A stretch of 64,000 bases of DNA, from NCBI GenBank assembly GCA_051294905.1, contig CM119372.1, positions 6,078,001-6,142,000 of the forward strand. The letters are read 5' to 3'. Numbering within the stretch: the stretch's first letter is position 1; each line of letters starts with the position of its first letter. This document shows, in pieces, positions 4,081 to 63,322 of the stretch. A program made the translations under genes and the position numbers. A model generated the notes under the pieces. The model did no database searches, was not told the origin of the DNA, and saw only the letters and a program-made list of their open reading frames with translations. Origin of the DNA: Botryllus schlosseri (lineage: Eukaryota).

Positions 4081-5337
4081 GGTTGCCAGTGAATTTGGCA
4101 TGTCGAATTCGGTTCTTGGCCGTCCCTAATCCTAAACATAACCCGAACACATTATACATATCAAGTGTCCGTTGCCCGGCAATTCACCAAGCGCCGAATT
4201 CACCGAATTCACGAATCACAACCCAAGCGCATATTAAGGGGATGGTGTGAACGTGAGGTTCACGTTCGCGTTCTGTGTGTGAACCTCGGAAATTTAGAGG
4301 TTCGCGTTCACAACAGAACCTTGATAGGTTCTGCACTGTGAACCTTTTTCATATATTACAATTTTCACTTCATTATAACATCTTTGGTTGAAAATTATTG
4401 CATTTCAACTGCGGGCCACTCTATGCATGGCGCTGGCAGCATTAAAAATCAACACTAAACGAGCATGCACCTTGACAATCTCAAAAGTTTTACTTGCTTT
4501 GTTACAAAAGTTTGCTCGAAATATCCAGCTTTCCGTTTATGAATATTTAGTGACTCTCTGCTGTGAGTTTGACCCGCAATCACACAACATCACGAGCGAA
4601 ATACATAGTCAGCGAATGATGCTTATCCAACCAATCGATGAGATTGATATCGTTTTCTGATGCAAAAAAATCAAGCAGGCGTACGGGGTCAATCTTGACT
4701 TCATATCTTTACTGCATTATTAAAACCAAATCCTTGCGATTGAGGTGTTGTTAATGGGGTAATATCGGTAGCAAGTATAGAAACCCGTTTTACATTCAGC
4801 TTAATATCAATGTAGCGATACTCAGACGCCGAATACATTGTCCGGTCTGGCCTAGAACGTTCAGGCGTAAGCTTATGTTCCCTGGTAAGTCCTCATCGAA
4901 ATTGTTGGCAAAGCGACGGAAGATATTGATTTTATAGGAGTAGGCTATCATATCCTTTGATTGCCTCAGTTGATACATTTAGCGACGTTTAAAACGCCAA
5001 CATGTACTTCGGTATTGTGGAATGATGTGGCTCGAGTCGTCGCTAGGTATCGTGTACATTAATATAGGCTATCACTTCATTGAAAGATAGGGTTGGAATT
5101 AGCAATATGACGTCACGTGACGTCATGAGGTTCACGTTCGTGTTCACACAGAACCTTGCAAAAAGGTTCGCGTTCACACGAACCTGAACCTTTCAGAGGT
5201 TCACACCATCCCTAATATTAAGCGAAACATTCATTTTCAAATTTGTTATTATAATATTGATGCATTGCTTTCATAATAATACTAGTTATTCATTTTTATA
5301 ATTCCAAATCCACCAAGTGCCGAATTCACTGTTAACC
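4081..5337. mobile_element. Small TIR element (GGTTGCCAGTGAATTTGGCA...TGCCGAATTCACTGTTAACC) interrupted by a family A hAT MITE
   Basis: Imperfect ~20-bp inverted termini and internal CCGAATTCAC repeats. Superfamily not assigned. Confidence 0.5.
4239..5214. mobile_element. Non-autonomous hAT (Ac-type), family A copy 1
   Basis: GGGATGGTGTGAAC ... GTTCACACCATCCCTA with ATATTAAG on both sides (left TIR lacks the terminal TA); subterminal GGTTCAC/GTGAACC repeats. Confidence 0.85.
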
Positions 5338-16149: not shown

Positions 16150-17123
16150 ATGAAGCTGTTGATTTTGCTATCGATTATTTCCGGCTATTTCGTGGTGCCC
16201 TCAACTTCGCAAACCACATGTTCCGTGTGCGACTGGGGGATGGTTGGGCTGAGTAAGTTGTATTTCGATTTGTATTTTATTTACTCAATGTGCTTAGCAG
16301 TGAAAAGCTTATATGTATATTAACATACACGATAACTTTTCTCCAATGACACAGTTATACGTACGCTCAATATGTGTTATAAGATGCTGTGTAGGAATCT
16401 GAAAGGCAAGTGATGCCTACAGGAATCTTTCAACTCATTTCGCTGAACGTTAGATAGACGCAATAGTGCTTGCCATGTTATTTTAACCACGTTTTTATCT
16501 CTTGAGGAGTCAAATCAGATATACGATGATGAAGTGTCATGAACTCATAATGGCATATGGTCACATTGACGAAAGTTTTTAAAAAGTATCGAGCATATCA
16601 GTATTTATGAGTTATGTATTGGGAACACAATATATACAACCCTCATTTTAGTAGATTTACATTACAAAACTATGCAGGGCTGAATAAACTAAATTTGAAG
16701 AAATATTTTCAAGTTATCGGTGTCGATGAATATAACGTGTTTTTTATCCTTTTATTCTGTATATATCAGCGACACGATATCAAAATTATTAATCAATTGG
16801 TTTTCGACAATCTCCAGTATTTCTGATCAGAGGATTTTGCTGAAGAAGCAGTGGAATTGTTACATGATAAGTAATATGTTTTATGCTATACCTTCCAACC
16901 ATGTATACGCGAATTTAAAGTATTTTTTCAACCAAATAATGTCCTACAGTATCCAATGGATACTTTCCATTCATTTGATATGTCGTATCATTCCCAGAAC
17001 TAAATTTTTATCCTTTATTTTGCTATGTTGCAGATGATGGATCTACTGTATTAAAACGTTTCGCAGACGACGAAGCCAGTGCCAACACCACATGGGATAA
17101 TATGATATCGTTTGGTTTAACCG
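16150..17123 (+). CDS. Exons 1-2: signal peptide and short N-terminal segment with a CxxC pair
   Basis: [64 protein letters not shown]. Hydrophobic h-region; phase-1 donors at 16253 and 17124. Confidence 0.8.
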
Positions 17124-20100
17124 GTGGGTGCCGTAATTGGTTATAGATTTTTGTTCTACTGTAACAAATATTATCCTCCCTTTACTCCCAGAAATCGGTA
17201 GACTTTAGCCATTTTTTGAATGGCGTAGCACTTCTAGGATAGTTGGATAATATTCGTGATCAGGTTAATAACAAACACGTGAACAGAGACAATTGATATT
17301 ATGTAGTGACGATAACCAGTGTTTCTGTATAAATTGATGCAAGAACCGGTCAAAAGATATTTGTAGCATAAAACCTATACTTATTCTGGAAGGCAATTTT
17401 TCATAATAATGGCGTGGCGTCAAGAAAATACAATGTGACTATTGAATTATATGACGTCACGTTGGGAATTTGGACGGTTATTGGGGCTTTTACCCTTACT
17501 ACAAAACCAGATTATCCTTTGAGAATGAAGTCGTGAGTGGGACAGTAAATACCTTGTCTATGTCTAGTCACCAGCTATCCTGTTTCGGGCATTGAAACGC
17601 CTAAACAGAGTTAAGCTTTGTGTGATGACCCTCCAGTCATCGGCCTAAGACATTTAGTACGTACGCGTATCTGTCCACAAAACTTGAAGGGGTCCGTGAT
17701 CAAAAAGGTTTAAGAAGTTTAAGAGATATGATGAAAACACTTTGTTATTGCGCAATTTCTTTTTATACCAGCCGTGACCGCGGACGATGCGTGCAATACT
17801 CACAACGCGTGCGGGGACAATTCAACTTGCAACACTCGCACGACCTACTTTTTCCTATGTGATTGCGAACAATCCTTCACCCCAAACAGAACGAGCGTGA
17901 ACTTCAATTGCGCGGGTATGTCAATAGAATTGTAATTTACCACTCCAAATGAACAAGGAACTCTGACAGTTGATTTGAGTCTGTGGCCTACGTACAGAAG
18001 GTTACTAATCAATTATATCTTTGATGCAGACACTGACGAATGTAACGAGAACACGCATAATTGCTCCAACAACGCAACATGCAACAACACAAGTCCTGGT
18101 TTCGATTGCACGTGTAACACTGGCTACACTGGCAATGGAACTTACTGCGAAGGTAAGCTGAGCAGAGACAGACCATAATTTATAGTGGTTTTAGTATTTA
18201 TTAATTACACTATACACGTCATATATTTATTATTAGAATAATAATAAAAATTACTTGTAAACTGGTACATGTGAATGCACCTATACATCCTTTGGTAACA
18301 TTCTACAAAATGCCGATGGAATACAGTAATTCCTGATTGATTTTTGGCATATATATCAAGAGTTAATATCAGATAAGTAATTGTCCATTCTCAACGCATC
18401 TTTTACGGATAGGCAAATTTCAATATTCACAACAACGTTTTCAACGGAATATTATTTGGCCGTAGCTTTTCGGTTGACACTTGGCAGGAATCACCCCTCA
18501 CAATGTAAAAAATAATACAATAAAGTTACTAGAAAGCTTAGCTCGTATTAAGAGAGTCATGAACGATGGATTGAGGAAAGGACATTCGAGAAAGTTTATT
18601 TTCACGCAATAAGGCTAAGTTTGATTCTATATAAATTCGACGAAATATATAATACTCGACGACCTCCATTATATCTCAGAGTTCGGCATATTCGGGTGTT
18701 GTAATTGGAAATATTAAGTAGCCTACTCGAGTGACTTGCAAAACTATTTATACTTGACAAACAATATGCATGTGATTGTTCCAAGCGGTATGGATGGAAT
18801 AGGGTTGGGGTATGTCGTCAGTCACAACAGACGGAAGTGATACCAATTAAGGTTACCAGACTCCCGGGATTCCTCCTCCTTCGACCGATCCGTCATCGCT
18901 TCAAGTTGCGCAACGCTCCCTACACATGTTTTCCTTAATCAACAGATCAATTTGTTTCGCTCGATTCAACCGCGCTAGTCACGGCCAAAGCGTGCAAATG
19001 GCAGAATCGACGATTCCTTTGATAAGTCCTCGAAGCTGAAAGCTACAGATCCAAAAATATGACCTGGCCACGCCTATGATCTAATCACCGTTTGAGTGCG
19101 ATAACAGCGCGTTCAGCGTCACATCCTATGACGACAATGTTCACGCCCTATTGTAGCAACGGTTGATTGATCTATTCATCGATGCGTTCAGTCCGTGAAA
19201 AGAACTTTCGCATTCTCATCTTTGGCGTGATGAGTGCTTTGACGACTGTTTTATTAACAAGACTCCCCGAGAATGCTCACGTTCATCCATATACGTTATG
19301 CGTGTAGTCTTTCAATGAGCTGGTGCTAAATACTTACCATATAACTCGCCAGAGCCACAGACGATTGTCACCGACGCAACTCAAGTGGCGTTGTCATTAT
19401 GACGTCATAAACACGATGTTGCTACAATGGCTGTTGAGCCAAATAGTACCTCAACACAATTCGCTCATAAAATTAAGTTTGTTTGTTTCCTAGATGTGGA
19501 CGAATGCACTAATGGCTCGGACAATTGCGCGGACGTTGGTGGAAACTGCACGAATACCGATGGCAGTTTCACTTGCGCTTGCGACACCGGCTATAGCGGC
19601 GACGGAGTAAATTGCACAGGTTGGTTTAAGTATGCTATTTTGCATTCCTTTCAAAGTGTTGCTCAGTGACTGTTTATAAGAGTTTGCTCTGTGCTTAACA
19701 TACCAAGTGTCTAGTTTGATGTTATATGATATCCAAATATGAGTTGGGTTTAAACTTAACAGGAACGAAGTAAATGTAAACCTTCCATCTCTGATCCTCA
19801 ACCAAATGATGTACCTGCCAACCCATTTGAGCACAATAGTTCGACACTAGAGGATGCTCTTGTCGCAGATGAATATGTGACGCGACCTAAACATTTTGTA
19901 TGCACGATTATTTCAAATGTCTTGAATTCCGATTTAGAAGTTCGTATAATCCAAGGCAAAGGGTTATAGAAACTATATAGTACGCGTACGCCAGTATACT
20001 TGTCCGATACTGTACGAGTTTACGTATAGTCGTATACAGCATACACTGTAAGTGACTTGAATATATATTGACGAACAACACATTCAGACATCGATGAGTG

Positions 20101-23100
20101 CGCTGTCGGGACTGCCAACTGTGACACCAACGCCAATTGTACCAACACCAACGGCAGCTTCACGTGTACTTGCAATACGGGATACAGCGGTGACGGCGTT
20201 ACTTGCGACGGTAAGTTGACAGATATCTGCTATCCTGCTGTGCTGCCTATAGTACCTATATGTTATCATTACCAAAATACCAGAAAGGCGGGTAAATAAG
20301 TATGACGTCAATATTTGTATTCAAAGACATTAACGAATGTACGGATGGCTCACACGATTGCGATACAAATGCAAATTGTACCAACACGAATGGAAGCTTC
20401 ACTTGCGCTTGCAACACTGGCTATACCGGAGATGGCAGGAACTGTTCCGGTATGTAATATTATTTATGTGTCGTCAACAGAGTCCGAGTTATATTTATCA
20501 GCGGTTATCCACACTCTAGTTATAGGCGGTGATGGGCACAACGATTCTAGTATCAATTATACTTATGCTAGTGAAATAGTGAGAGTCGATTTCAGACTAA
20601 GTAATAAGTATATTCACGGGAAGATATTCTGTTAATGATAGCGACCGATCCTCGCAATGGTCACAAATCAACATGTTCCTGATTTGGATGACGTATAATT
20701 GGCATCAATTTGCTAGTGGCCATAATAAGATACATATTTCCAAGTCATTGTCACGGTTATGAAGTCATGATAGGGGTGCTCAATTGCTCGAATCGACTTT
20801 GATTCGAATTTACCATGGACGCCATTTTGACCAGCTCAACAAAATATATTTGATCAGGCGACTATTGCAGCTTTCGATACGGCCGGATTCATATAGTATC
20901 AGCGATTCGGAACACGATAACCTTTTTATAGCATAACACAAGTCTTTACGAAGCTTCCATTTCCCATAGCACTTACCTACAGGCCTATATATCAACGTAA
21001 CTATCAGGGAGGATTTCATCCACACTAAGTTCACCATTGCCGATTTTTCAACCATATAATATTCACATTGGCTTCGACGGCTACCAATGATTTTCAGATA
21101 TCGATGAATGCACAACCGGTACAAACACCTGCGGGACAAACGGAAACTGCACGAACACCAACGGTTCCTACACGTGTGAATGCGATACCGGTTACACCGG
21201 AAACGGTGTGAACTGCACAGGTACGCAAATGTGATCGGTGCCATACGCCGGCCAGGAAGGCATATATAATGTAATAAATATTACCCATGGTCGAGTATGG
21301 ATAAATACTATAGTCAGCCCTCAAGATTACCGGACCTTGATCTGACATATTATCCTCGCCCATAGAAACATGCGTCGTCCATTTTCATTATTCGTTTTAT
21401 GTTATCCCTTGTTTCTTTCGATCCAGTGTGCATGCCTCTTATTTAAATCGCCTAGGCACAGGTGGGTGTCTGATTGGCTACTTTTAGTTGTGTCGATATC
21501 CTTCTATCTTTTCATTATATCGCAGTTTTGTGGCGTTTTGAAATGATAAATGATGTTTTGATTTAGATATCGATGAATGCGCGACCAACACAGACAATTG
21601 CAGCGACACGGGCGCGAACTGCACCAATACTGATGGGAGTTACACGTGTCAATGCGACACTGGTTACACGGGGGATGGCTTCAATTGTACCGGTAAGGCA
21701 TATAAATGCGATCCGGTAACGAAATTATATGCTAAAGTAGCAGAGATGCCACTCCTGGGTTTTTCCACCCAGATCTGGGTTTTCCGAGCATCTCCTGGGT
21801 TTCTGGGTTTTTGTGCTTGAAATCTGTTTTTTTTTCAACATCATGTCTGTCAGGTCAATTTTAGGGCGCAAAATTGATTATTAGCTTAGTAAGATCCTAT
21901 ATTATCGACGGATTCTACTGTGATTGAGTCTAAAGAGATCCATTTACTATTACAATGAGAGGTCTTGGCGTGATGAGAGAGCTTAATTGAATACTGACTA
22001 CTAGGTCGCAGAAAGTCATTTTCACAAGGCAACTCTGGAGCATTTGTTTTGCAATTCAAAACGATTTAGGACTTGAATACTAGCGCTGCAACAAATTCGT
22101 TGTGCGTCAGTAAATAGTATGTAACTGCTGCAAAGTATGCAATTAATGCACATGGAAAGATCGACCAAATGTTGATCTAACTAATTTACCATGTTGACAT
22201 CAGAGTATATTCACTTTGAACAGGGACACTCAAAGAGACAGTTTGGGCACCCGGGCAAGTTATTCAGAGGGAGAGGGGTTTGTCAAATTCAAATGTACCC
22301 TTAATTTCATGATCTGGCATTTTTTTTCGACTAAACATCCCAGATAAAAGTGCTTGTCCCAGGTTTAATGAATCGAAAGATATTTTTAATCTATCTGGTA
22401 AGCTCACAGCCACTGGAACTATACCCTAAAATCATCCTCATCATAGATGGGGATTAGCATTGTGACAAACATTACGAATATATAATAAACTACGTATTGA
22501 CCCCCCCCCCCTCCATACTGAATGCCCGTAGCAATGGATAGAGAGGAAAGCATCATATTTTGATGGATTTGTTCATTTAACTGAGCAAAATGTATATGTA
22601 AATGAACAGCTGGGATTTCAATATCAAGGGCTAAAACTTCCTCAATGTCTGTATAACTGTCATTGATGACTCTCAGTCACTGTTTTGCAGCTATATCATA
22701 TAAATTTGAGTGAAATATAGGATCTGGGTTTTTCTGGGTTTTTCAACGTCCAAATCTGGGTTTTTCCAAGATATCTCAGTGGCATCTCTGTAAAGTAGTA
22801 GCAGTGTGATATTTTCTGCTCACTGAAGTTAACCTATCAATCGGTCTTCTAGCATAAGGACCATTCTGCGAAACGTTTTAATAAATATCTGGGATTTGAG
22901 AGCTGTAGTCCGCTATACGGTATGTCTGAAGGTGGCATTCTTCGCCCGCATACGGTTGACAACAATTATTTACACAACAATATAATGCTAGGATGGGGCA
23001 CTTATAAAAATTGGTGACAGTTGTACCGTAGTAAGTTTACCTTTCTCAACGTATATTATTAGCTATGCCGGTTAGAATTTTCCATTGCGATTTATTGATC

Positions 23101-26100
23101 CCGGAATCGAACTATACACCAATTTCTTTCTACATAGTCCATCTGTCACATTAGTTAAAACTTTTAGATCGCGAATATGATCGAAAATCATCACATGCAA
23201 TAGGCTTGGGGATAAGGAATATCGGCCTGCGGTACAGTGACCATGACCATAGATCTCGAAACATATCGAGACGCGGCTTCGAGGTTTAACTTTGTTGTAC
23301 AAAGTCAGAATAAGGAGTCATATTTTATTCAATTTGTGCGTCAGTGGTCCTCAAATTAGCATTATGCGGGTTATAAAGAAAATTTCATTTTCGCTCTTCA
23401 TTTTCAGATATTGACGAATGCACAACGAATACGAACGATTGTGATCCAAATGCAAATTGCACCAACACAGATGGCAGCTTTACTTGTCAATGCGACACTG
23501 GATACACCGACAACGGTGGTAATTGCACCGGTAAGAACGCGAATGAATATACAGATTAGTATCCATCCACGAACCGTACGACCTGTACGAGCTTGATACC
23601 ACACACCGCTCACAATCCTATATTTAGACATCGATGAATGCGCATTGGCAACGGATAACTGCGACGATACAGGTGCGAATTGCACGAACACGGACGGTTC
23701 CTACACCTGTCAGTGCAATACAGGCTACAGCGGCGACGGATTCAACTGTACCGGTAAGTCACTGCGATCTCCCGAAGCGTGCCTTCCGCGAGTTCTCTTT
23801 GCGAAATCGCGAAGAGCTCAAAATGGCCGTCACAGCTCGGAAATCAGATTTGATTTGAGACGTGAAAGTTAGAATAGACGCGTAGAGACGCCAGAGAGCT
23901 TGAATCTAATCCGAATTTCCTGCGGTCGCTTGTAGTTGGTGATTTTGCCCTGTGAAAATATGACTAGAAGACAAGCTGTAGCTTCAAACTTAAACATTTG
24001 TGCCATTGCATCTCGTGCACGTGAAACAAGATATTGCAGCTTTAGATGTTATTGTGATATGAAAATCAGTGCTGTCAACCATTGGGTCACGAAGCTATTT
24101 CCGAATGTTACAGTTTTTTATCCAATATATCACAGAGAGCTTCTTTGGTTGTCATGTAATGCCAGAAATTTTCTAATTGATATGAAACCTGTTTTATAGG
24201 CATAACTAGCAGCTGTTGGAGTACTGACGATCGTACATGCGGCCGTTTGTCAAAATAGGCGTTGGTTTACCTTAATCTTGGAATAAATTTAGTTATTTCT
24301 CGATAAATTCCTAGTATGAAAAACGAGCCAATCAAGCCTAGACTTGATCTGACAATATCTAATATGCTATCTCAACTTTGTCATTACTAATATACTGATT
24401 GTGTATATTCACTGTTTCTTTTGTCAATATTTTTTGTTTGTTTGGACATATCTCGTTTTGGGTCGCACAATAAAACTTCTGTCTAAAGTGGGTCGCGAAC
24501 TGAAAAGGGTGGGAAGCACTGATGTAGATGATTACGGTTAACATAAAATAGCAAAGCAAACAATAAAAACAAATTTTAAACAAGGATCATGTTACATCCG
24601 TGTATTAAATATATTTTTCATTTCAAAACACTGCTGGTATTTAAATATATACCTGTCGTCTCAGACATCGACGAGTGCACCGACAACACAGCCAACTGCG
24701 CAGCAACTGCGAACTGCACCAACACTGTTGGTAGCTTCGACTGCGGCTGTGATACCGGATATACCGGAGACGGGGTTAACTGCACTGGTAAGTCTTGCCG
24801 AATGGATTTTATATAGTTGCGCAATTGATCTCTAATCAAAAACACTGTGAGAATAATATTCCGTGCCCGATTGCATTTTCAGACATCGACGAATGCGCTA
24901 CCAGCGCTCCCTGCGACGCAAACGCGAATTGCACCAACACGAATGGCAGCTATACGTGCGAGTGTCAAGCTGGCTACACCGGAGATGGTTTGAACTGTAC
25001 AGGTATGGCAATATCGATGGTAAGGCATGCGTCGGCCGAGTTAACAACTAGGACTAAAGTTTATTAAAATTCTGAGTAAGTTTACTTTAATTCGTGTGAC
25101 TCCCAATCCAAAACCATACCCGGAAATTCCACGTCCAATCCCAATCGTCTTCACGCTTCAAAACATTTTCAACTCCAGGTTCGAATCCAGCCAAAGCTCA
25201 AGTACGAAGGGGTGCATAGGGCTGGACAGAATGATTTGACTACTTTTATCGGAATCGAGCAGTAATTTTGATTAATTGGAATTGGAATCGTGTGTACTAT
25301 GGATACAGAAATGAACATCGCAATCATAATTGGACGACTGAAATAATGTCAGCTTTCCCAAAGTACTTAGAATTATAATTATAGCTAAACAGCTTTTTTC
25401 CAAATTAAAATAGAATTAGAATTATTGCTGCACAGTTCTTTTTCTTCAAAATTACATTTTGATTAGAATTATAGCTAAGCAGCTTCTTTTTTTCAAATTG
25501 GATCAGAATTAGGCTACAATTACTGAATGCGCGAATACTTTGTAATCGATTCATTTTCAGTTCATATCTATACGTATACAGCAAGCTTGGCTCGTTTGGA
25601 AAGATACGGTTTTCATGCAGCATTTTCAGAAAAAAACCAAAAATTAGATTAAAATTAAAATTAAAGCATAGAAACATTTTCATAAATTGAACAAGAATTA
25701 GATTGCAGGAATTTCGCTTTAATTAGTCAATTATTAGACGACCAGTATTATCTAGTTGTACGAGTATGATCACTATCTTAACCTGACAACCATGCCGCCC
25801 AATTCTTCCGCAGAAAACGACGAATGCGCCAGCAATCCTTGCGACTCGAACGCTAATTGCACGGATCTAGTAAACGATTTCAACTGCACCTGCAATCCGG
25901 GATACTCCGGAAACGGCACATACTGCGAAGGTGAGCCTAATACGCCCCGCTCACCTGGCCGCTGTAACACCCTGTCGAATTCGATTCCTTGCCGCAGATA
26001 TCAACGAATGCACAGCCAATACAGACGACTGCCACGACAACGCCACTTGCGCAAACACGGCCGGCAGTTTCACCTGCACGTGTGACACCGGTTTCACCGG

Positions 26101-29100
26101 CAACGGCACAGATTGCCAAGGTAACCCAGACCTGCCCCACATAAAACACTGTAGAGTACGAGTGGAGGTAGTCTGGATCTACAACATATACTTGAGTGGT
26201 CCTATAAACTACGCTATCTATCCAGTGTAAAAATAAGTAAAAGCATACATTTTTCCTATATATATCTATATATATATATGTTAAAAAAGCGGAAGTTGCC
26301 TATACCAGCATAATCACTTGACTTTACAAATAGGAAAGAGATTACTTCAATACTCCAAGAGAGTAGCTTTCCCTAAAACAGTTCTAAGTAGTTTGGAAAT
26401 AGTCTGAGAACATTTGATGTAGGTGGGCAAAACTTACTCGACAACTCCTAAAAAGCAGAAGTGTACTTCATTTCTGATGAACTCTGCAAATAAGCTCTCA
26501 GATAATATATTGTGACAGTTGACAGCCCACCCGTTACGGGTGTGCTTGAATAACTAGTATTTGTTATTGCGGTAGTATTGTTATTGCTGAGGCCACCAAG
26601 TGTACAGTACTGAGTACGTAGAATGGACACTTGGTGGACACATGACAATGCATTCACTTGTTATCTGAACCGAACGCCTGAAATACAGCTTTCCGAAAAT
26701 GTACGTTGTATCTCCTATCATCTACAATTATAGGAGGTCTTACACACAAGATCTGATCAATAAGATCTCAGAACACAATGTAAATACTCATGTTACATAA
26801 ACTCACAAACTTATCCTAACTATCTTACAATTATACGTATGTCATAACACCGTCTTATTACGAATCGCAGACGTCGACGAATGCTCCTCGAGTCCGTGCG
26901 ACACCAACGCCAATTGCACCAACACGGCGGGTAGCTTCAACTGTGCATGCAACACTGGATATTCCGGAAACGGAGTGACGTGCGAACGTGAGTCGAGCTA
27001 TACTTTACTCGCGTGGTCTAATATAGTTTATCATTAAACCGATGATGCTTTACAGGCCAACGCCAAACCCTCAACCTCACATTCTACATAACTATGGACA
27101 GCGTCAACTACACCACCACCTTCGCAAATACATCAAGCGCCTACTACATTGACAATATTGCGCTGGCGACGGCGGCAGTAAGTTGTGAACCATTCTCAAT
27201 ATACGGGGCTGAACTTGATTCGTAGCAAAACCGGTAAACCTGTAGAAGTTGTGTATGGAGCATCATTCGATAAAAGGGAACATATTGAAACATATAAATT
27301 CGTAGTAAGAATAGGTGGTCAGTAGTAAGCATTGATAGTCAAGCAGAGGTAAAAGTAAGGCTGTAAATTCCCGCTGAATTACAAGGAAAAGTATCGATTT
27401 CCAAGACATGTCAAAAGCTACTCAAATAAGCATTTTCAAAAAGTAGATTTGGTACACGGGTAGCACACTTGGAGCATGTTAATCGGAGGTGGCTATTTTC
27501 GATATTGCAATCTTCGCGACTAACGCGAAATCACTAATGACGCTACGGATAGCTACCATCTTCGAAAATATATTCGGTTACCTGATACGGGGGCTTTTAC
27601 ACGAGGTCGTCATTAGAATTCCTCTCCTTACAGTATGCAAGCTTATGTCGAAACTGCTGTCTAAATTTTAGAATCCGTAGAAGTTTTGGCAATAACTATT
27701 CAATGACTGTTCAATCGCCCATTTTCCAGTCAGATAATCCAACTTTTGCGATTTGTAAAAGTGTCCTATTTTCCCGATCCCAAAATATGGTAACCGTAAT
27801 TTATGGTCACTGTTCTGATATCAGAGAAAAATACATAATCTTTTCAGATCAGAACATTCGTCACCGGAAGAGACGCTGCTGCAATCGTAGACGATATGAC
27901 TTTTAGCTGCAATACGAGTGCCGACGGTAACGTTTTTGAGGCGATCAGTATCGCCGTATATGTACACGGCTCGTGATGAAATTTTTCGTGTTCAGGTTTG
28001 GGATATGCTGAATGCCAAGTCAATCTCTACCTTAACAACACAAATGTTGAAGAAAATACATACCTCAGCAACGTCAATCTAACGACCGAAAACACGCTTT
28101 CGCTGAGCGCCAGTGAGTAAAGATTTGCGTCGTGTTATCACCGAAATCATAGTGTGATTATAAGCCTACTGCAGTCACAAAATGAGCGAGGTCGTGCGTA
28201 CTAATAAAGAAATACCAAACGAAATCAAAGGAATTATTTCGCATGCATATGCATAATGCAGCATATGCCATGATGCACTCATCGTATACATGTGCAGTGT
28301 GCACATGCAGATCACATGGGTATGTGTTTATGATTAGTCGGTGTATATGCCGCAAACCGTGAAGGAAAAAAATATACAAAGTCCTATGACAGCCCATGGT
28401 AGTTTTGATAATGAAATGTCATCTTCCACATAATGTCAATTTACACGGTGCCGTAAACTACTCAGTGAAAAATCAGTCAGCGACTGCTTCTAAAGACTGT
28501 TAGTGAAATTTGTCACTTTGAATTTTGTCTGTCGTCCAAAACAAAATGTTTTAGTTGTGCAGAAATGAACGATAGGCCTAAAAGTTAATTTCGCGATTCT
28601 TTAACGCAATTCAATCGCAGGTGCCGACGAATGTACGCTGGGAGTCGACGGTTGCGGGGCCGATTACACCTGCGTCGATACTCCGTACCTGTTCTGCTGC
28701 ATCCACGGTAAACAGCGTCTTGTCTCCGATACCAGAAACATGCTGTGACGTAAACGTTAACAAATGTATTACCAGATATCGGCGGAAGGTTTGACATCAC
28801 GGTGGACGAAACCTGGGTGCAGGCCTACCAAGACAGCTCCAACGAAATATTTACAAACAGATCACGTCTAGTCAGCAGTTTTGTAAGTATCATTGGCAAA
28901 GCCTCATCGGGAATTTCTGTAACTAAAATTTGTACAGATTACTGTCTCATAATTCGATGAATATTAGGAAATTACAAAACACGGCTTAATCCAGAGGATT
29001 TCTTATCTAGCAAAATTCGCGATTTGACTTTGTTCTTCTTCTCCACATATTATATATACATACGCAGTACAGGGACGGTAAAACTTTATACTTGAATGGA

Positions 29101-32100
29101 AGTAGTCGAAGCGTCGTAAATTTATAGTAATGTACGATAGAAGCAGAGGTGTTCAAATAAGTACAGAGGTATGTATTCTTGACCACTGGTTCTGTTATTG
29201 TAACAGCCCTTTCTACCGCACCAGTTAATCCAGACGTCTTTCGTAACAGATGAACGACGTACTTCTCCCGCCGATGCAAAACAGAAGCTGCCAAGCTCAG
29301 CTGTCGACCTCTTGCGACGTTGAAAGGATTCTTCAAGGTTCAGTCATCCACGTGCTGGGACTTCTCCTGAACGGCGCTACCTTCTCTCTGCAAGACATAT
29401 CTGACGAGCTGAGAAGACGATTGAACGAAACGACATCTTTCGGAACAATTATTGGTGCCGGAGGTACGGGTTCCCGAAAAACCTTTGCGTCAGCTGTTAT
29501 GGAACACACATTTTATAAAAAATCAGCTTACCGGACCTTTACAGAGTCAGTCACATCAGAACGGGGTCAAGTACCAGTGAGCTTTGCTACTCAAGTAGAA
29601 ATAGAAGGAGCTATTTCAAATACATGCCAAACTATACTTGAAGGACAAATCGAAATGTTTACATTGTACACATGTATGTAGTTTTAAAGTAGGGGTGTCA
29701 AACATCCGACCCGGGAAGCAATTCTGAGTAGATGGAAAAATGCTTGTATTATCCAGCACATTTCTAACAAATGTAAAAGTTTTTAGTACGCAATACTTCA
29801 AACAAATAATCCCTCAATGTTCCAAGGCCGCATCATAACCAGCCGACAGCGTTGTCGTATATTCACTATTGTCGCCATTAGGAACAATTTGGTGGCATTG
29901 TCACCCAATTCTTTAAAGGCAAAAAAGCGCAGACTGAGCTCGGAATTTTATGGAAAAGGACCAAAACGTAGTTATTAATAGTACCGTAAACGCCAACGAT
30001 AAACCTTTATATACAGGTTACATGAAGATTATAATAGTTATACAAAAATAGTATCAAATATCTGTCGACGCACTGCTGTATCGCTTCTGACTCGGAAGGT
30101 TTCCGGCCTCCTGAAAAATCCTAATCGCGGTGTAGTAATAATGAATAAAATTCCGATATCTACGTTTACGGTTAAATCCCTTTTATTCGTCACAATGCAT
30201 ACACAGGACTAAACGCCAGATGACGACCGTAACATATCAAGCATAGAAAATAAGCCAACTTCAGAACGTGATATATAATTATCAAGCCTCTATACACAAC
30301 AGTATATTACTACTGATCATAGTGGTTCAATTCTAGCAATACGTATATATGCAAACAACGGAATCGGCAGAATAACAAGATTGACAGCCTGAATACAGTT
30401 ATAAACCGCCAAAACTGTGGCCCTAACGAAGTTTTTTGGAATTATTTGACTAGTCCGGTCCGCGAGTGATATGCAGATTAAAATCCGACCCGCGGTGTGA
30501 GTTGAATTTCACACCCCTGCTTTAAAGGATAGATTTGGTGGCGTGGAGGTGTCGGATGCTTTTAGTAGGGAATTGGATGGGGGATATCAAAATTACCATG
30601 ATGCAGGGGCTTTTTCGTTAGGTTGCGATGATAATTTAGCCTAGCAGATGTAATGAAAACCAATCCAATAACCACTATCTGCTTTACAAAATCCCAAGTG
30701 TTGAAAGTAAGTAATCTTCCGTTCAAAACTGTAGTATCTACAATAGTATTCAACATACATGCATGCACAACCCCATGTATAACTACTTGAATAAATCGGG
30801 AGAATGAGCAATACCTACTAGGGATGGTGTGAACGCGAGGTTCACGTTCGCGTTCTGTGTGTGAACCTTGGAAATTTAGAGGTTCACGTTCACAAACGAA
30901 CCTTGATAGGTTCTGCACTGTGAACCTTTTTCATTTATTACAATTTTCACTTCATTATACCATCTTTGGATTAAATTTATTGCATTATAACTGCGGGCCA
31001 CTATAGGCATGGCGCTGGTAGCATAAAAAATCAACACTAAACGAGCATGCACCCTGACAATTTCAAATTTTAACCTGCTTTGTTACAATATTTAGTGACT
31101 CTCTGCTATGAGCTTGACCCGCAATCACAAAATTTCAAGACCGAAAAGCGATTGATGCTTATTCAACCAATTAATGAAATTGATATCGATGTCAGATGTA
31201 ATAAATCTAACAAGAGTACGGGGTTCCTCTCGATTTCATATGTTTATTGTATCATTAAAACCACATACGTGCGATTGAAGTGCTGGCTACTGCTGTATGA
31301 CCTGTTAATGGGGTAAAACCCGTTTACACTCTGCTTAATATCAACGTGGGAACACTCAGACGCCGAATACATTGTCCGGTCTGGCTTAGACGGTTAAGGC
31401 GTATGATTATATTCCCATGCAAGTCCTCGTCGAATTGTTGACAAAGTGACGGAAGATACTGATTTTACGGGATAATTATATCATTTGATTGCTTCGCAGT
31501 TGATATATTTGGCGACGTTTAAAAAGTCAGTATGTACTTCAGCATTGTGACATTATGTGGCCCGACTCGGCGCTTGGTATCTTGTACATATATATATATC
31601 CCTTCACTGAAATGTAGGGTCGGAATTAGCAATATGACGTCACGTGACGTCATGAGGTTCACGTTCGCGTTCACACAGAACCTTTCAAAAAGGTTCACGT
31701 TCACACGAACCTGAACCTTTCAGAGGTTCACACCATCCCTAATACCTACACGATCACTCTAAAAATTCAGAATTATGTAGTTACCAACCGCCTCCGCTAA
31801 TATTTTGATCGACGATGTGACATGTCTTCATTCCAGACTTCGACGAGTGCATCGAGAGCTACGCCGAGTTCCGTAATTGCAGCGCGCTGGCCGAATGCCT
31901 CAATTTTGCTGGTACTTTCACGTGCCAGTGCAACGCGACCTATTACGACAACGGGACGAGCCCAGGAGAAATCTGCAGTAAGACATTTACTCTTCGTTTA
32001 AGGGAAGGAGACGAACATTTGTGCGTGCACGTCACCAGTGTCATATAATTTCATGAATATACAGTAGGCATGTCGCAAAAAAGCTCTGTTGCCGAGAAGT

Positions 32101-35100
32101 ACACCCTTCCCCTTGGCATACCGATACATATATCATTGATTCTGTCCCTATCTATCTATCTATGGAAAGACTCTTGTTCTCAAAACGCCATGCGATTGCT
32201 TCATATATAATAGCCTATAACATTTATGACATGGCAAACAAGGCCCTTTCTGTTTATTTCGCCAATACCGATTGGTAATTGTCACTAATCACTTAATCAG
32301 TAATCATTCACTTGAGCAGTAGCTGCATTTCGGGCTGCGGCGATGATTGTCGGCGCTTATTTAATCATTGCTAATTGGTTGATTGCATTTGAATGTTGTA
32401 TTATGTAGGCCTGGCTGTGTAGACCAATTTCTGTTGTTTGACTTCACTGTAAAGCATTGGTTGTAAAGAGGTGTAGTTTATCACAATTGCTCTAGTCTTG
32501 GGTAATAAAATGTTTGATATCTTGTTTAATATCACGAATTCTGTTGAACAACGTGTAATTTTGCATCCAAATACCGCCAACATAGAACAGTCCTTGATAA
32601 CAGATGACGTCTCAATTCTTAGCCAGACAGTCGCACACACCACGAGCATCGTGGCATAAGCTATGTTTGTTTTTCGTCAGTAAACCCGATCTCCGTGGAC
32701 TGCGCCGGAAACATCATGAATGTCTCAATCCTGAGCGACTACTACAGCCAACAAAATATCAGCCTGGACGCTTTGCATTTGGCCGACGAAACTTGCAACA
32801 GGACCACACATTCCAGTATCATAGGAGACTCGATCGAATTCAGCGTCAACATCAACGAGTGTAACACGTCTTTGGCTTATTCGGCGGTAAGATTCGTCGT
32901 CGGGCTAGCTGTCGTTTTAGTCGAGTTTTTATTCAATATAGCTCTGCTACATCCATTGATTGATCCAACATAACAAGCTGCCACTATAATACTTAGAGTG
33001 CGTTAGATGTGATGGTGTTTATTAATACGAAGGTCTTTTACACCAAAATTAATTTCATCAATCGAAACATGCGAATTGATTAGTTTTGTAAAGGACTATA
33101 TAAGGCATTCACAATATTAAGGGAATGAAGCTCGTTAAGAATTGGTAACGGTGATGGTTCGATTCGATATGGTGCTACACACAATGATCGTGAATATAAG
33201 GTATTCAGGTTATTAAATAAATGTTATATCAAACATATTAATGTGCTAAGTCAACAAATCTATCTCTTGGCGTTTTCTTGGCCTTGGTTTAATGCATTTA
33301 TGCGATTTCGAGGGCCCATACATTATTGAAACTTGACACTTCTTCAGGGGTCACAAATCTCACTCTCATGGCCTCAGGAAGATCACCATGGCCTTATATC
33401 ATATTTTTGTCTAGCCGTGTATTTTTAACAAAGCCACTAATAGAGATCATCATTATTGTGTCTTTTACGCCTGGCGTTTGGTCGTACGCTAATCACATAG
33501 TGTTCGGCTCTAAGCCAACTTCGAGTATACGTAAATTCTAAATACTACAGGTGTTCATGTAGCTTTTCGTCTTGATATTCAGGACAATACCAGCATCGTC
33601 GCAAGCAATTACATCACCAATCTCCCGTCATCCGGCGTCTTCACTGGGCTGGAGATCATGGTGCCATTCGAATGTGCCATGCCAGTCGACTTGAACCTTA
33701 CCGTTGGATTGAACGGATCAGTGGAGTAAGAAATAAATAAGTCCAAAGGGGATTAAAGCAAGACGATAACACCGCGCGTTCTTTACAGCACCGTGGTACT
33801 GCCTAATGTGGTAGCGTCCGGCGAGTTCGACCTGAGGTTCCAGATGTACACAAACAACTCTTTCTCGTCTGCCTACGACACGTCGAAGACATACGGAAGT
33901 AGTGACACGCTATATGCGCAGGTAACCTACAGCTCTCTTTGAATTCGACTAGGGGTAGTCAAAATAATTAGTGTTCCTACTCCAGTATAAATTTACAAGG
34001 CATGGAAAAACTATAAGTAGACCAGAGATAGGAAAATTACTGGAGGAACTTGTTTCAAAAAATCGATTTTTTGGTGAGATGGCATACTTTCATAAGTTAA
34101 TAGCACGTGCCTAATTTCGTAATTGTGAGCGGTATCTTCGCGACGAGCGCAACACGACGCAGAGTAAATATGTGCACTCTCCGAAAATGTATACAGTTAT
34201 CGCGAAACAGAGATGTTTCGCGCGGTTCTTGTTCCAAATTCACACACAAAATAGACCCGCGACTTATTACAATGATATTTTCTTATTTTCAATGTTCAAA
34301 GATCAAAAAGTAGTTTTGTGCACAACACAGTTTAAGTATAGACACTACAAATCGGTGCAATCTTCGAAAATATATTCAGCTACCGTGAAACAGGGCTGTT
34401 TCGTGCTGCTCTTATGACAATTTCACCTGTAAAATAGATGCAAAATATTTTGCAAAGCTGCTTTCTTCATTTTAAAATCCTGTGTTTAAAAAATAACCGG
34501 TTTTGATGTAGAAGTGTAATTACTTTGAAACCTAACCAGTTTAGTAAGTGGTGCAGGATATTTACTACTTTAATACTTCGAAAACGAACTAAAAGTTATT
34601 CGTTACCGACCGCCTCTACGTTTGACGCGCGTATTCACGGTGTTCAGGTATCAGTGGAGAACAACATCAACGGCATTAGCGTGAAGGTCGACAGATGTTA
34701 CGGTACGCCAACAAGCTCACGAACCGACAGCGATCAGTTTTCTTTCCTGGAGAATGGGTGAGTAACCGACATAATTGAAGTTACCGCGATATCAATGCCC
34801 CAACATATAATACTTTACAGATGCTCGAACGGGCAAGCGGCACAGTTCAACATGATCAACAACGGTGACGGAAGCGCCCAGTTTTCGTTCAAGATGTTCT
34901 TCTTCCGTCAAGTGAATGCGGTTTACTTGCATTGCGAAGCTCAAGTTTGTACGCCAAGCTGCGCTCAGGTACAGGGTACATTGTTTGATTTATCTCGCTA
35001 TAAAACTGGGCTAACTGTATTCCTTTTGCGCTTAGACGTGTAGCGGCAGAAAACGGAGAAACGTACCCGACAGCACTACGCCACCAGCGTGGTTGTCGCT

Positions 35101-36251
35101 TTTAATCAGAATCGATCCGAACGACATCACGTACGATGGTGAAGGAAACGTAATCGGGGTCAATGTTCCGGGAGGTAACAACAACGTGAATGACGGTGAG
35201 AAGACTATTAATTTCTTACCTTTTGACGAGTTGTCATCTAACATCCGTATTTCCACGGTATTGCGTCGTGTATAACCGAGCATGTCCGTATAGAAATCGC
35301 AATACCAGCAATTTATGTATAAATAAGGTGTAAATACTTGTCAGTCCTCAAGATGACTAAACCCCCCATTTTTCATATCCACCTCGCCTACCGACACATG
35401 TCACATTTTTTTTCGTCGCTTTTCTATGTTCTCTTTTATTACTTTTTATAAAGTGTCCATGCCTCTTATATATTGGTTTGAGTCAAGGTGGTGTATCATT
35501 AAAAGAGTACTTTAAGTCATTTCGGCATCCTCTTATCTTTTCATTTATCCTAATCTTGCGGTGTTTTGAACTGAATAAATCTTATTAAAATCATTTCTGA
35601 GGAGCCCCGTGCGGGCGAGATATTTTATCTACCTCGTGTGACGTTATATATGCTTCATAACAAATATTACCGACATAGATATAGGTATGGCCAATTGGCC
35701 ATGCTCCGTAATTGCATGCTCGCACAAAATAACATTACGTGTTCTCGCCAACTACTTTTCATTCAAGCCTACATTTCTCAGAGGCAAAATATACATAGGG
35801 TTGTAGCATTTTGCTTACAGATTAATTCGATACTCTGCAGTTAGGCTTATCGTTATTCCAAATGGCTTGGTACAATCTCCCTCGCTGGCTGCGTAGAGGC
35901 AAATCTACTCGGGATTGCATGTGAATTTGCGTTGACATAATAACTGTATGACAGTATCTGCATCGTTTTAACTTATGTAGCAGCAATATAAAATCCATAT
36001 ATTGCCATCAAACATCACTGGCGCAGTTGGTATAGTGAGACTATAACAATACTAATTCAATTTCATTTTCAGACACGTCAACGCAGGATATTGCTCTACC
36101 GATTATGGCAGCCGTGCTGGCATTCGTCCTCATCGTTCTACTAGCCCTTCTTGTATTTGTGCTTGTCAGAAAGCGCAGATCGTCAAAGGATAAGCAAGAC
36201 TTGTCCCACGTTAACATGCACGCTATCGGAGTCCAACCGCCCGCGTATTAA
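16150..36251 (+). CDS. 30-exon gene: EGF-repeat/SEA/ZP-domain type I membrane glycoprotein (uromodulin-like/UMODL1-like), about 1291 aa
   Basis: Hand-spliced with all introns GT-AG and consistent phases; total 3876 nt ending in TAA. Exons: 16150-16252, 17034-17123, 17772-17915, 18030-18152, 19494-19619, 20088-20210, 20327-20449, 21098-21220, 21567-21692, 23408-23530, 23628-23753, 24665-24787, 24883-25002, 25814-25930, 25998-26120, 26871-26987, 27056-27177, 27848-27926, 27996-28112, 28621-28707, 28776-28882, 29250-29463, 31837-31977, 32681-32886, 33583-33725, 33789-33921, 34648-34757, 34821-34968, 35036-35195, 36073-36251. Begins [21 protein letters not shown] and ends [27 protein letters not shown]. 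Confidence 0.92.
17772..26987 (+). CDS. Exons 3-16: 14 tandem EGF-like modules (13 calcium-binding type), one per phase-1/phase-1 exon
   Basis: Each exon is 117-144 nt with 6 Cys. Consensus D(I/V)DEC...NC..NANCTNT.GS(F/Y)TC.C.TGY(T/S)G(D/N)G.NCT, e.g. 21567-21692 [42 protein letters not shown]. Confidence 0.95.
21741..22790. mobile_element. Non-autonomous 8-bp-TSD (hAT-like) element in intron 9
   Basis: TIR CAGAGATGCCACT/AGTGGCATCTCTG; perfect TSD TAAAGTAG; subterminal CTGGGTTTTT repeats. Confidence 0.9.
27056..28112 (+). CDS. Exons 17-19: divergent SEA-like domain 1
   Basis: [83 protein letters not shown]. The beta-strand plus 'Y...fan.sS..y' pattern is typical of SEA N-termini; recognised by eye. 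Confidence 0.6.
28621..29463 (+). CDS. Exons 20-22: truncated EGF module and SEA domain 2
   Basis: [73 protein letters not shown]...[17 protein letters not shown]. Contains the SEA motifs 'W..ay.dss...F' and GSVI. Confidence 0.75.
29690..30519. mobile_element. Non-autonomous hAT (Buster/Charlie-type) in intron 22
   Basis: TAGGGGTGTCAAAC ... TTTCACACCCCTG; TSD TTTTAAAG/CTTTAAAG (7/8). Confidence 0.75.
30819..31741. mobile_element. Non-autonomous hAT (Ac-type), family A copy 2, in intron 22
   Basis: TIR TAGGGATGGTGTGAAC; perfect TSD ATACCTAC. Confidence 0.92.
31837..35195 (+). CDS. Exons 23-29: cbEGF plus ZP module (ZP-N/ZP-C, 10 Cys), furin site and external hydrophobic patch
   Basis: ZP-N Cys in VDCAG, ETCNR, NECNT, FECAM; IHP-like [12 protein letters not shown] motifs [45 protein letters not shown] at 35048-35059; EHP-like AWLSLLIRI. 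Confidence 0.92.
36073..36251 (+). CDS. Exon 30: transmembrane helix and 28-aa cytoplasmic tail
   Basis: [32 protein letters not shown] followed by the stop-transfer RKRR and a tail ending QPPAY-TAA. Confidence 0.9.
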
Positions 36252-54051: not shown

Positions 54052-55361
54052 CTCTTATAGTCAAATTGCCTGTAGCCAAATGAAAACTGTGACGTGTTAC
54101 AATTTCACTGAGGCGTGAGATTTGCCTGTGTCGACACCATATAGGACACTATGGTTCCATCCTCTATAGTTCCATGTCAAATTTATATAATATTACCAAG
54201 CCCCGAACTGCTGCTATCTCCGGCTAAGCAAATTTGCGTGACCCCATGCGCAGATGCATTGTTGGTACACGGTTAAATGATTTAGTACAGGTACAGGGGC
54301 TTATGGAAAAGCGGTCAGTGTTTAAATATATTTGATTTGTATTGGGTCTGTACTATTTTATACGTATAGTATGGAGCTTTGAATGACTAATTATTCTAAC
54401 ATTCATGATTTGTTGCAGCCCAATACCTCGTGTCAGTAGGCCTATATTGATATTCTGTGTAATTCGACATGTCGAAGATAGTCCGTTCATCAGGTGCATG
54501 GTATCGGGTGGTAATCTTTGCTGTGCCGGGGTGGTTGCAGTAGAAGGCCGAAGAAAATATCCAATGAGTCGTATGCAAGAAGTAATAGTGACGGCAGTAG
54601 TGATAAAGAGTCGATAGTAAAGCGTCGATACCCCAGAAATTTTCACCGGTAAGTGAGTAACAGAATAAGCATAGCATCCAGACATCTTCAGATCCGCCAC
54701 AGTTGTAATAAATAGGTCATGGTAAAGTGATAGCAGAACATTTCGTTGCCGCTAAATGAATGAAATGACCAGACCAGACTACCAGCAGAAATCCTTGTCA
54801 ACAAATCAGCTATGTAATGTTCATCATCAATATCTGTAATTATGTCCATCTCACTCTTCGCATTTTGTCCATGATCGAATACAAGTAGTTCGGCCAATAA
54901 TCAGTTTAGTATTCAATTCTTGCTTATACTATGTAGGCATGAGCAGGACTACAAGGAAAAGATACAATTAATGACCTATGGGTTTTCTTCGACATAGTTA
55001 AAAAAAGGATATCTTTTTCAGATTAAAAAAAGGATATCTTTTTCAGATGCTTAACAAATACTGCGGAATTTGCAAATTCCATAGTCGAGTTCATCTATAG
55101 TCCTTATATCTATAGTCCTTATAGCGTTGTTCAAAACTGTCAATTTATTTATTCAGAAATATTTTTCAAGGTTTACCTTTGAACTGCTCCAGCTTTAGAA
55201 GGCTGCCTCAATCTTGAATACAATAGCCTATGGAGTGAAAAGTGACAGACGTATAATTTTATCAGACAAGATATTTCATGTCCCATATTCTTTTATCATC
55301 TCATAACAAAGAATTGTCTATTTGGTGTGCTTCGCTTCATACAATGCTCTGTAAAATGCAG

Positions 55362-59545: not shown

Positions 59546-59847
59546 GTATTCATAGCCACCACGTAGCTGGCAGCAATAGCATTGACATAAGCGCCATTGT
59601 AGTGAGATTTCGAATCGAGGCCATAGGGTGATTCCGAGGCAGTCTCCGGTAATAACTTGAGGCTGGTGGTCATAGCTATATATGCTTTTAGTATCTGTAG
59701 ATACAGTACCTGGAAGATAACAATAAAACTGGCATTATCCATTGCAATCATTTGATAGCTTGATTAATTATTTACACTTGAAATGTGCCTGTTTGTTGGT
59801 TTTCAACATTTGTAAGAATAGTAAATTACAGTGTGTGCTCGAGGACG

Positions 59848-63023: not shown

Positions 63024-63322
63024 GGTATAGGATGACCGATCTTGTCACTGCGTTTGAGCTGTTCTAAGAGTTATTTGATAGTTACTTCCCTTAGTTCGCT
63101 AAATAGCGCACATATGTGACATCAACTATTTATCAAAATCGCGTGTGATTTGCCAAATCCACTTCAATCGCAGTCGTGAAGTAGTGCTAATAAGATCGGC
63201 ATTGTATAAGGCAACAATAAAGTGCACTGCTTTGCTTAGTCTTGATGGCAGGTTCTCCCAAAAGATACTTCCGATGTGTTCAGCGGTTTTATAGCAGCAC
63301 GCCCGATAGGGTTGGTGTTCAT

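Follow-up and report, generated by a model that had tools for sequence, protein, structure and literature searches.

An intact, transcribed Botryllus schlosseri gene for an EGF–ZP transmembrane protein with two SEA-like units between its EGF array and its ZP module

The EGF–ZP gene lying on the forward strand of the window (the whole 64-kb stretch of Botryllus schlosseri DNA analysed) is genuine, intact, spliced and transcribed, and its product is, judged by the features tested, neither UMODL1 nor VC120. A long EGF array on a ZP–furin–TM base is known from FBN-1 and CiVC57, so that the novelty consists of the SEA-like/half-EGF/SEA-like insert.

Gene model and order of the modules

The 30-exon model extends from the ATG at 16150 to the TAA at 36251 (+) and comprises 3,876 nt encoding 1,291 aa, the sole stop being terminal and all 29 introns being GT-AG. 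Reads were mapped to 16200-36199 (the run search returned no run registered as RNA, and matches of small share were left out) and support at least 19 of the 29 introns, namely at least 14 among the 15 joints listed, four in a second table and one through a loose read end that corresponds to the first bases of exon 29. Furthermore, a 1,488-nt contig has exactly the size expected for the sum of exons 2-13 and a 1,158-nt contig exactly that of exons 14-22, so that nine further introns (2-9 and 18) fit; intron 1, not seen in the reads, has as its backing the alignment with the Styela protein described below. The full-length, intact gene proposed in the initial annotation is confirmed by the model and the read joints. 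None of the 120 tblastn HSPs within the window lies outside this gene. An additional exon inside intron 22 was considered and ruled out, as reads join exon 22 directly to exon 23.

The encoded parts are, in order, a signal peptide, a CxxC/KR tip, one EGF and 13 calcium-binding EGFs (cbEGFs), SEA-like unit 1, a five-Cys half-EGF, SEA-like unit 2 with a GS motif, a cbEGF, ZP-N/ZP-C, RKRR, a hydrophobic patch, a TM helix and a PPxY tail, each of exons 3-28 being assigned to a module:

16150..16252 (+), exon 1: signal peptide (~aa 1-20, by hydropathy) and conserved CxxC (C24, C27), aligned with Styela C27/C30
17034..17123 (+), exon 2: N-terminal tip with conserved dibasic KR (aa 42-43); read depth in bin, contig size fit
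17772..17915 (+), exon 3: EGF-like, non-calcium-binding, 6 Cys; Cys spacing, 33% identity with Styela
18030..26987 (+), exons 4-16: 13 tandem cbEGFs, one per phase-1 exon; consensus, Pfam, read joints from exon 10 on
18030-18152, 19494-19619, 20088-20210, 20327-20449, 21098-21220, 21567-21692, 23408-23530 (+): cbEGF exons 4-10
23628-23753, 24665-24787, 24883-25002, 25814-25930, 25998-26120, 26871-26987 (+): cbEGF exons 11-16
27056..28112 (+), exons 17-19 (27056-27177, 27848-27926, 27996-28112): SEA-like unit 1, aa 644-750; 31% identity with Styela, fold model
28621..28707 (+), exon 20: half-EGF, 5 Cys (C754, 761, 767, 775, 776); 5/5 Cys kept in Styela, 52% identity
28776..29463 (+), exons 21-22 (28776-28882, 29250-29463): SEA-like unit 2, aa 780-885; 32% identity with Styela, predicted secondary structure
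31837..31977 (+), exon 23: cbEGF adjoining the ZP module; Pfam EGF_CA 29.6 bits, 71% identity with Styela
32681..33725 (+), exons 24-25 (32681-32886, 33583-33725): ZP-N, 4 Cys, and interdomain linker; Pfam ZP-N 28.0 bits (exon 24, above the cut-off of 24.7), 55% identity with Styela
33789..34968 (+), exons 26-28 (33789-33921, 34648-34757, 34821-34968): ZP-C with FXF motif; Pfam ZP-C 33.9 bits (exon 28, above cut-off)
35036..35195 (+), exon 29: furin site RKRR (aa 1184-1187, 35048-35059) and a strand resembling an external hydrophobic patch; RRRR and a similar strand in Styela
36073..36251 (+), exon 30: TM helix, 27-aa tail ending in PPxY, stop; hydropathy, TM 75% and tail 63% identical with Styela

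The EGF, ZP, furin and TM assignments hold. Upstream of SEA-like unit 1 there are indeed 14 EGFs, as had been counted, of which 13 fit the cbEGF consensus (D/N-x-D/N-E-C start, six Cys, C-x-D/N-x4-Y/F-x-C); the remaining one, in exon 3, has six Cys at EGF spacing, yet no Pfam EGF match. Together with exon 23 the consensus is matched 14 times, and Pfam EGF_CA is above cut-off in 13 of these 14 exons, exon 14 passing EGF and EGF_3 instead. The array exons are mutually 55-72% alike at the DNA level, and the predicted cbEGF rod is supported by the consensus matches and by the linkers, which are one residue long at all 12 junctions. The array (aa 113-642) contains 86 D/E, a single R and no K, lysine being absent altogether from residues 43-1081; this lysine-free kilobase of protein represents an unexplained constraint that merits attention. 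The 56 N-glycosylation sequons of the protein support the heavy N-glycosylation that had been surmised.

The ZP module has four Cys in ZP-N and six in ZP-C, the last of which is encoded by exon 29, and the six matches obtained in a PDB search with exon 28 were all uromodulin or GP2 (E 0.002-0.01). Since ZP module, furin site, hydrophobic patch (assigned by eye from its position and alternating hydrophobic residues) and TM are all present, the formation of ZP filaments, also foreseen in the initial annotation, appears likely.

The Styela counterpart and the SEA-like insert

The sole true relative found by the homologue searches is the predicted protein of Styela clava LOC120342773 (XP_039267678, XP_039267680), annotated as "fibrillin-2-like", "Notch-like" or "uncharacterized" and probably the orthologue, since the two proteins are collinear from signal peptide to tail with 44% identity over 1,076 columns. 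They have in common the CxxC/KR tip (43% identity over aa 21-64), the SEA-like units, the five-Cys half-EGF, which is real and conserved, the furin site, the FXF motif, the hydrophobic patch and PPxY. On the other hand, the Styela array has eight cbEGFs (six in isoform X2) as opposed to 13, its ectodomain contains 16 Lys, and its ZP-C lacks the counterparts of the canonical C1110 and C1168, a joint loss expected if these two form one disulfide. Conservation is uneven: ZP-N retains 4/4 Cys at 55% identity and TM and tail rank with the best-conserved regions, whereas ZP-C is the lowest at 23%.

The searches require exact five-residue words, so that relatives in Ciona, amphioxus and vertebrates could be missed. 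Within this scope, exon 24 yielded no relative among 11 candidates, residues 460-1103 of the Styela protein retrieved only itself among 8,000, and residues 565-860 none among 1,369 shorter proteins; of the four matches obtained in another search, three were repetitive, unrelated proteins and were dropped. A literature search for the LOC120342773 identifiers found no mention, and they were unmatched in the Styela endostyle supplement (one file of ~4 million characters), where other gene names are possibly used. Pfam recognizes only EGFs in the Styela protein, with no ZP at E<=0.1 and no SEA either in the whole protein at this threshold or in its 241-aa region at E<=10; annotation-based ZP inventories would miss it. 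A conserved, unstudied ascidian ZP protein, concealed under a fibrillin/Notch look-alike name, is thereby added to those known.

Are the two 106-aa units SEA domains, as initially assigned? A SEA fold is a ferredoxin-like β-α-β-β-α-β arrangement of ~105-120 aa, and autoproteolytic members carry a Gly-Ser in the β2-β3 loop (GSVVV or GSIVA, in excerpts of PMC6954182). Unit 2 has Gly844-Ser845 (29337-29342) at its predicted β2-β3 hairpin, within GSVI here and GSSI in Styela, and a conserved C828, while unit 1 has GY and no Ser at this position. The model of Styela unit 1 is β-α-β-β-α (pLDDT 42) and ferredoxin-like by VIA-align, where at this low confidence the SEA domain of Gpr126 and proteins unrelated to SEA matched equally well; no SEA chain appeared among the 50 entries listed in a second VIA comparison, and Foldseek with a fragment model gave MIF-like chains, none at E<=0.001. 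Pfam PF01390 matched no single exon (the domains are split across exons in this gene), exon 22 alone had no useful match in PDB, Atlas or NCBIfam, AlphaFold gave a pLDDT of 33 for the full Styela protein and a complex prediction for the two halves of Styela unit 2 scored 0.01, which speaks neither way. The MAFFT alignment of exon fragments with the Styela region came out misaligned and was used solely for the per-member Pfam scan. Thus, fold pattern and GS motif fit, whereas a profile match is missing and the model is of low confidence, so that the SEA identity of the units is plausible but unproven. That they belong instead to another α/β fold, which would make this simply an EGF-X-ZP matrix protein with a superficial resemblance to UMODL1, appears unlikely.

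Relation to UMODL1, vitelline-coat proteins and other ZP proteins

UMODL1 has the domain order SEA-EGF...SEA-EGF-ZP. In the available parts of PMC8874799 and PMC3542605, UMODL1/olfactorin combines cbEGF, SEA, ZP and TM within a single protein, a combination found here with SEA-like units. In contrast, the Botryllus protein has a 14-EGF array and lacks EMI, WAP and FN3, which Pfam matched in 0/30 exons and nowhere in the Styela protein. In Ciona, two gene models bear the names "uromodulin-like 1" (KH.L108.30) and "uromodulin-like" (KH.C13.153), as listed in PMC8495957. With uromodulin and GP2 the protein shares the EGF adjoining the ZP (exon 23 at the position of uromodulin EGF IV), the ten-Cys-type ZP, FXF, cleavage site and patch; it differs in lacking D8C/D10C, in having a TM and tail in place of the GPI anchor and in its much longer arm.

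Among the vitelline-coat proteins, HrVC120, which is gonad-only, consists of 12 EGFs, one incomplete EGF and ZP, and CiVC57 of vWF, 24 EGFs, ZP and TM (excerpts of PMC9265791 and PMC8849226). Signal peptide, 12-24 tandem EGFs, ZP and TM are common to HrVC120/HrVC70, HaVC80, CiVC57 and the Botryllus protein, as is allelic variation if the Botryllus versions described below are alleles; HrVC120 shares also an incomplete EGF. In the VC120/VC70 family the array runs directly into the ZP, whereas here 243 non-array residues, with joints read in RNA, separate cbEGF 13 from the last EGF and place the two SEA-like units in between. HrVC70 has repeats of ~54 aa (12 ending at Arg668) as opposed to cbEGFs of 38-42 aa, and five potential O-fucose sites and ubiquitination on Lys234 are described for it in these sources; the Botryllus array has no lysine and no strict O-fucose motif (C2xxGG(S/T)C3; zero in both the Botryllus and Styela proteins, with four relaxed C-x4-S/T-C sites in the former). 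The suggested combination of the UMODL1 and VC120 designs is not supported as one of descent: no homologue search by exact five-residue words retrieved either family, and EMI/WAP/FN3 and the strict O-fucose motif are absent.

C. elegans FBN-1 has many EGFs, calcium-binding and not, along with a ZP, a furin site and a TM, and it shares the apical-matrix location and alternative splicing, but it is twice as long with long Ser/Thr-rich regions, and the excerpts of PMC4395870 mention no SEA in it. Drosophila Dumpy is an apical matrix protein of the same EGF–ZP type, whose Ser/Thr(/Pro)-rich low-complexity regions are absent here. The likeness to FBN-1 and Dumpy noted here concerns the domain frame.

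Possible roles

With roughly even confidence, we regard the protein as a type-I membrane protein that serves, in the manner of uromodulin or FBN-1, as the precursor of filaments in the apical extracellular matrix. A furin-type convertase would cut at RKRR, whereupon the hydrophobic patch would depart and the ZP modules would polymerise at the cell surface, as in uromodulin, whose assembly is driven by cleavage site, FXF motif and patch and whose N-terminal domains form branches (excerpts of PMC7737619). Each subunit would project an arm consisting of the EGF, 13 Ca-stiffened, N-glycosylated, acidic cbEGFs and the two SEA-like domains clamped to the half-EGF. At 2.5 nm per module the 13 cbEGFs would measure ~30-35 nm. 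The arms could space, hydrate or tether the matrix, and the CxxC tip may cross-link them. PPxY motifs function in endocytic routing, and the tail probably sends the leftover membrane stub to endocytosis. Somatic use of ZP proteins exists in tunicates, as indicated by a Botryllus ZP gene expressed along the endostyle and in follicle cells (PMC4523013) and by the ZP protein of the Oikopleura feeding filter (PMC3390340); by analogy, a somatic epithelium (that of the pharynx/endostyle or gut, or the epidermis beneath the tunic) may be placed somewhat ahead of the egg coat as the site. The absence of VC70-specific features is in keeping with a somatic matrix, while the ascidian EGF-ZP proteins studied biochemically are egg-coat proteins in the available parts of PMC9265791 and PMC8849226. 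The protein is thus a candidate for building structural filaments in the feeding net, along the gut lining or at the tunic interface, or else for a second egg-coat protein class.

An egg-coat function, in which a structural or sperm-binding protein like HrVC120/HaVC130, HrVLP-1/2 or CiVC57 would be made by oocyte or follicle cells, polymerised, and present a polymorphic EGF arm toward sperm, is a strong rival to this reading, if the less probable of the two. The EGF arrays and ZP of HrVC120 and CiVC57 and the gonad-only expression of the former speak for it, as does the finding that, in both contig runs, exons 14-22 occur in two versions of about equal depth (~1:1); in exon 22 one of these (an allele or a near-identical paralogue) departs by 11% from the window. 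Coverage of the ZP exons is present in run X21 and scant in X23, indicating sample-dependent expression. However, the failure of the five-residue-word searches to match a VC120-family protein and the O-fucose and lysine differences from HrVC70 argue against this role, and four published Botryllus zp-1 primers mismatch at 6-7 of 20 positions. Of 32 variant codons (from 33 of ~500 variant rows), synonymous ones number 19 and non-synonymous ones 13, and no Cys is affected, a pattern resembling purifying selection against a polymorphic background. The DNA runs have only 0.23 of words in common over the stretch, so that the background may be highly divergent; we hence make no claim of balancing selection.

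The conservation of TM and tail relative to ZP-C also fits a receptor-like role. A non-polymerising tether or receptor, membrane-bound or shed as a monomer, whose cbEGF rod reaches matrix or ligand, with SEA-like unit 2 giving way under force and the TM/PPxY tail signalling or controlling turnover, is nevertheless improbable: furin site, FXF motif and patch persist in both species, ZP-N is well conserved and the tail is short, even if Styela ZP-C has lost two Cys, EGF/SEA transmembrane adhesion proteins such as C. elegans MUP-4 are known (excerpt of PMC13072950) and cleaved SEA domains stay joined until pulled apart by force (excerpt of PMC6954182).

A speculative extension of the filament reading, to which we assign a low likelihood, is a ZP filament with breakaway polyanionic brush arms: unit 2 would cut itself at Gly844-Ser845, the lysine-free, acidic, Ca-stiffened arm then remaining attached by non-covalent contacts until it is torn off by shear or by a microbe or particle bound to it. 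C775/776, C828 and C836 are all upstream of this site, so that no disulfide is predicted across the cut. Arm length would be tuned by gain or skipping of phase-1 cbEGF exons, the array numbering 13 in Botryllus and eight or six in Styela. If the SEA-like units hold, the protein bears on the origin of the UMODL1 design and offers a test of a self-cleaving SEA releasing a ZP-filament arm; were the SEA-EGF-SEA-EGF-ZP base orthologous to that of UMODL1, the tunicate–vertebrate ancestor would already have joined mucin-type shedding to uromodulin-type polymerisation.

Structure and transcription of the gene

The gene is real and conserved. Its model, for which exon boundaries were set from the raw sequence and then assembled by coordinates, extends over 16150–36251 (+ strand) and comprises 30 exons totaling 3,876 nt and encoding 1,291 residues; the only stop is terminal and 29/29 introns are GT-AG, which bears out the intact gene proposed in the initial annotation. 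Exons 3–16 are symmetric (phase 1), each with a single EGF, and since the cbEGF exons are 55–72% alike in DNA the EGF array should be regarded as old rather than as a fresh tandem repeat.

Transcription was analyzed by aligning to 16200–36199 two contig sets (X1 and X3), taken as RNA by guess, and two RNA-seq runs (X21 and X23), of which ~6 in 100 reads were sampled. Among the matches listed, introns 12–16, 20–27 and 29 are spanned in 15 joint rows; a further joint table adds introns 10, 11, 17 and 19, and a loose read end at 34968 agrees with exon 29. Altogether, at least 19 of the 29 introns have direct RNA evidence, and because the joints are spliced X1 and X3 do contain transcripts. Furthermore, exon 12 lies in a 1,488-nt X3 contig at the offset predicted from exons 2–11 plus 13 bases, and exon 22 in a 1,158-nt contig at that predicted from exons 14–21; given this agreement with the model, introns 2–9 and 18 also fit the contigs. 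The summed depths in the four bins covering 33542–36199 are 4.7–7.3 in X21 vs 0–0.4 in X23 (12.9 vs 7.4 million reads), indicating that the expression level is sample-dependent. A short repeat in intron 8 (~21424–21550), marked by numerous loose-ended reads in all four runs, is probably a high-copy element.

Both contig sets contain two 1,158-nt transcript versions of exons 14–22 (25811–29463) at ~1:1 depth (29.6/33.8 in X1, 39.3/26.7 in X3), one differing from the window at 2/212 bases of exon 22 and the other at 24/212 (up to 11%); these are either divergent alleles or the products of the gene and a close paralogue. The 33 exon rows classed of 40 variant rows, among the matches listed, hold 19 synonymous and 13 non-synonymous codons with no Cys lost, a pattern consistent with constraint on the protein within a species that is polymorphic; diversifying selection is not demonstrated by it.

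Modules and the Styela counterpart

In a Pfam scan of the 30 exons one by one, exons 4–16 and 23 were found to be EGFs, 13 of these 14 passing the EGF_CA cut-off, ZP-N was passed by exon 24 and ZP-C by exon 28, exon 27 matching ZP-C below cut-off. Together with the TM helix, these matches confirm both the long cbEGF array and the ZP–TM end that had been annotated. In the PDB, exon 28 matched six sequences, every one of them uromodulin or GP2. Downstream of the ZP come RKRR, a hydrophobic strand, the TM helix and a 27-residue tail with a terminal PPxY, a motif that binds Nedd4-type ligases.

The protein has 56 N-glycosylation sequons, and its cbEGF array has one-residue linkers (12/12) and 86 Asp/Glu vs one Arg. 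Lysine is absent between K42 and K1082 (aa 43–1081, 1,039 residues, exons within 17034–33921), a stretch that includes both SEA-like units and ZP-N and has a probability of ~5e-8 at the rate of the Styela ectodomain (16 Lys/997). As to its meaning, our guess would be that it makes the protein resistant to proteases or to cross-linking directed at lysine.

Of four matches obtained with exon 24 among 1.84 billion representative sequences, one was genuine, namely P0001, the product of Styela clava LOC120342773, annotated as fibrillin-2-like, Notch-like or uncharacterized. This protein can be aligned to the gene model over its whole length (44% identity, 1,076 columns), has an array of 8 cbEGFs, and yields EGF families only in a Pfam scan; its X2 model is shorter by 83 residues, i.e., two modules. 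The Styela protein has few lysines, yet is not lysine-free (8 in the aligned post-array region vs 0 here). The match also contributes to identifying the source organism as an ascidian, probably one near the styelids. Word-based homolog searches, insensitive at this distance, returned no further relatives.

Identity of each module to the Styela protein
Tip (N-terminal CxxC and KR segment): 43%
First EGF: 33%
SEA-like unit 1: 31%
Half-EGF: 52%
SEA-like unit 2: 32%
Last EGF: 71%
ZP-N: 55%
ZP-C: 23%
TM: 75%
Tail: 63%

Known proteins and possible mode of action

The literature describes HrVC120 as gonad-only, with 12 EGFs plus an incomplete one and ZP, HaVC80 with 13 EGFs and CiVC57 with vWF, 24 EGFs, ZP and TM (PMC9265791, PMC8849226), UMODL1 with EMI, WAP, FN3, cbEGF, SEA and ZP (PMC8874799, PMC3542605), and FBN-1, which shields the epidermis against force, with numerous EGFs, ZP, furin site and TM (PMC4395870); PMC3543715, PMC10980280, PMC3390340, PMC9080433, PMC4523013, PMC8495957, PMC13072950 and PMC9953650 were also consulted. 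The frame of EGF array, ZP, furin site and TM is common to the gene and to proteins already known; no description was found of the SEA-like/half-EGF/SEA-like insert on it or of the lysine-free arm. Ciona gene models named uromodulin-like exist (PMC8495957). A literature search, largely outside subscription papers such as the original Ciona egg-coat proteome, found no description of this architecture and no paper with the Styela identifiers; among the papers listed, "SEA domain" occurs in none of 4 in one search and in 2 of 25 in another, both of the latter on receptor shedding. Identity with Botryllus zp-1 was rejected by the zp-1 primers, an argument that is weak if the species differ.

Uromodulin polymerizes once cleavage has freed its hydrophobic patch; this assembly relies on the interdomain linker together with an FXF motif, and the N-terminal domains project as branches (PMC7737619). 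These assembly elements are present in the gene product and in its Styela counterpart, and their retention in both species suggests a filament in which, by analogy, ZP subunits would polymerize with one long arm projecting from each; a non-polymerizing tether or receptor appears rather improbable. The arm is presumably stiffened by calcium and 30–35 nm long, as taken from fibrillin data, and its conserved tip CxxC and KR may represent a cross-link or a propeptide. As to where such a filament would act, we give an even chance to a somatic apical matrix or mucus, the egg coat being possible and distinctly less likely.

Other elements of the window

Intron 22 contains a ~920-bp non-coding element (30819–31741) that ends in inverted repeats of 16 bp and has a target-site duplication of 8 bp, features by which it is classified as a putative hAT-type MITE; in each of the four runs, reads reach a high depth on it. 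Outside the gene, the 145 of 481 ORFs scanned gave no Pfam match other than the pair listed here, apparently a fragmentary P-element/THAP9-type transposase (55246–56466).

4239–5217 (approximate): copy of the intron 22 element
55246–55566 and 56047–56466, + strand: THAP domain (Pfam, E 8e-10) and TNP-like RNase H N-terminal match (E 1e-4)
57392–58189 (approximate): copy of the intron 22 element
59412–59548: partial copy of the intron 22 element
63320–64000 (window end): short tandem repeats with periods of 20, 23 and 43 bp
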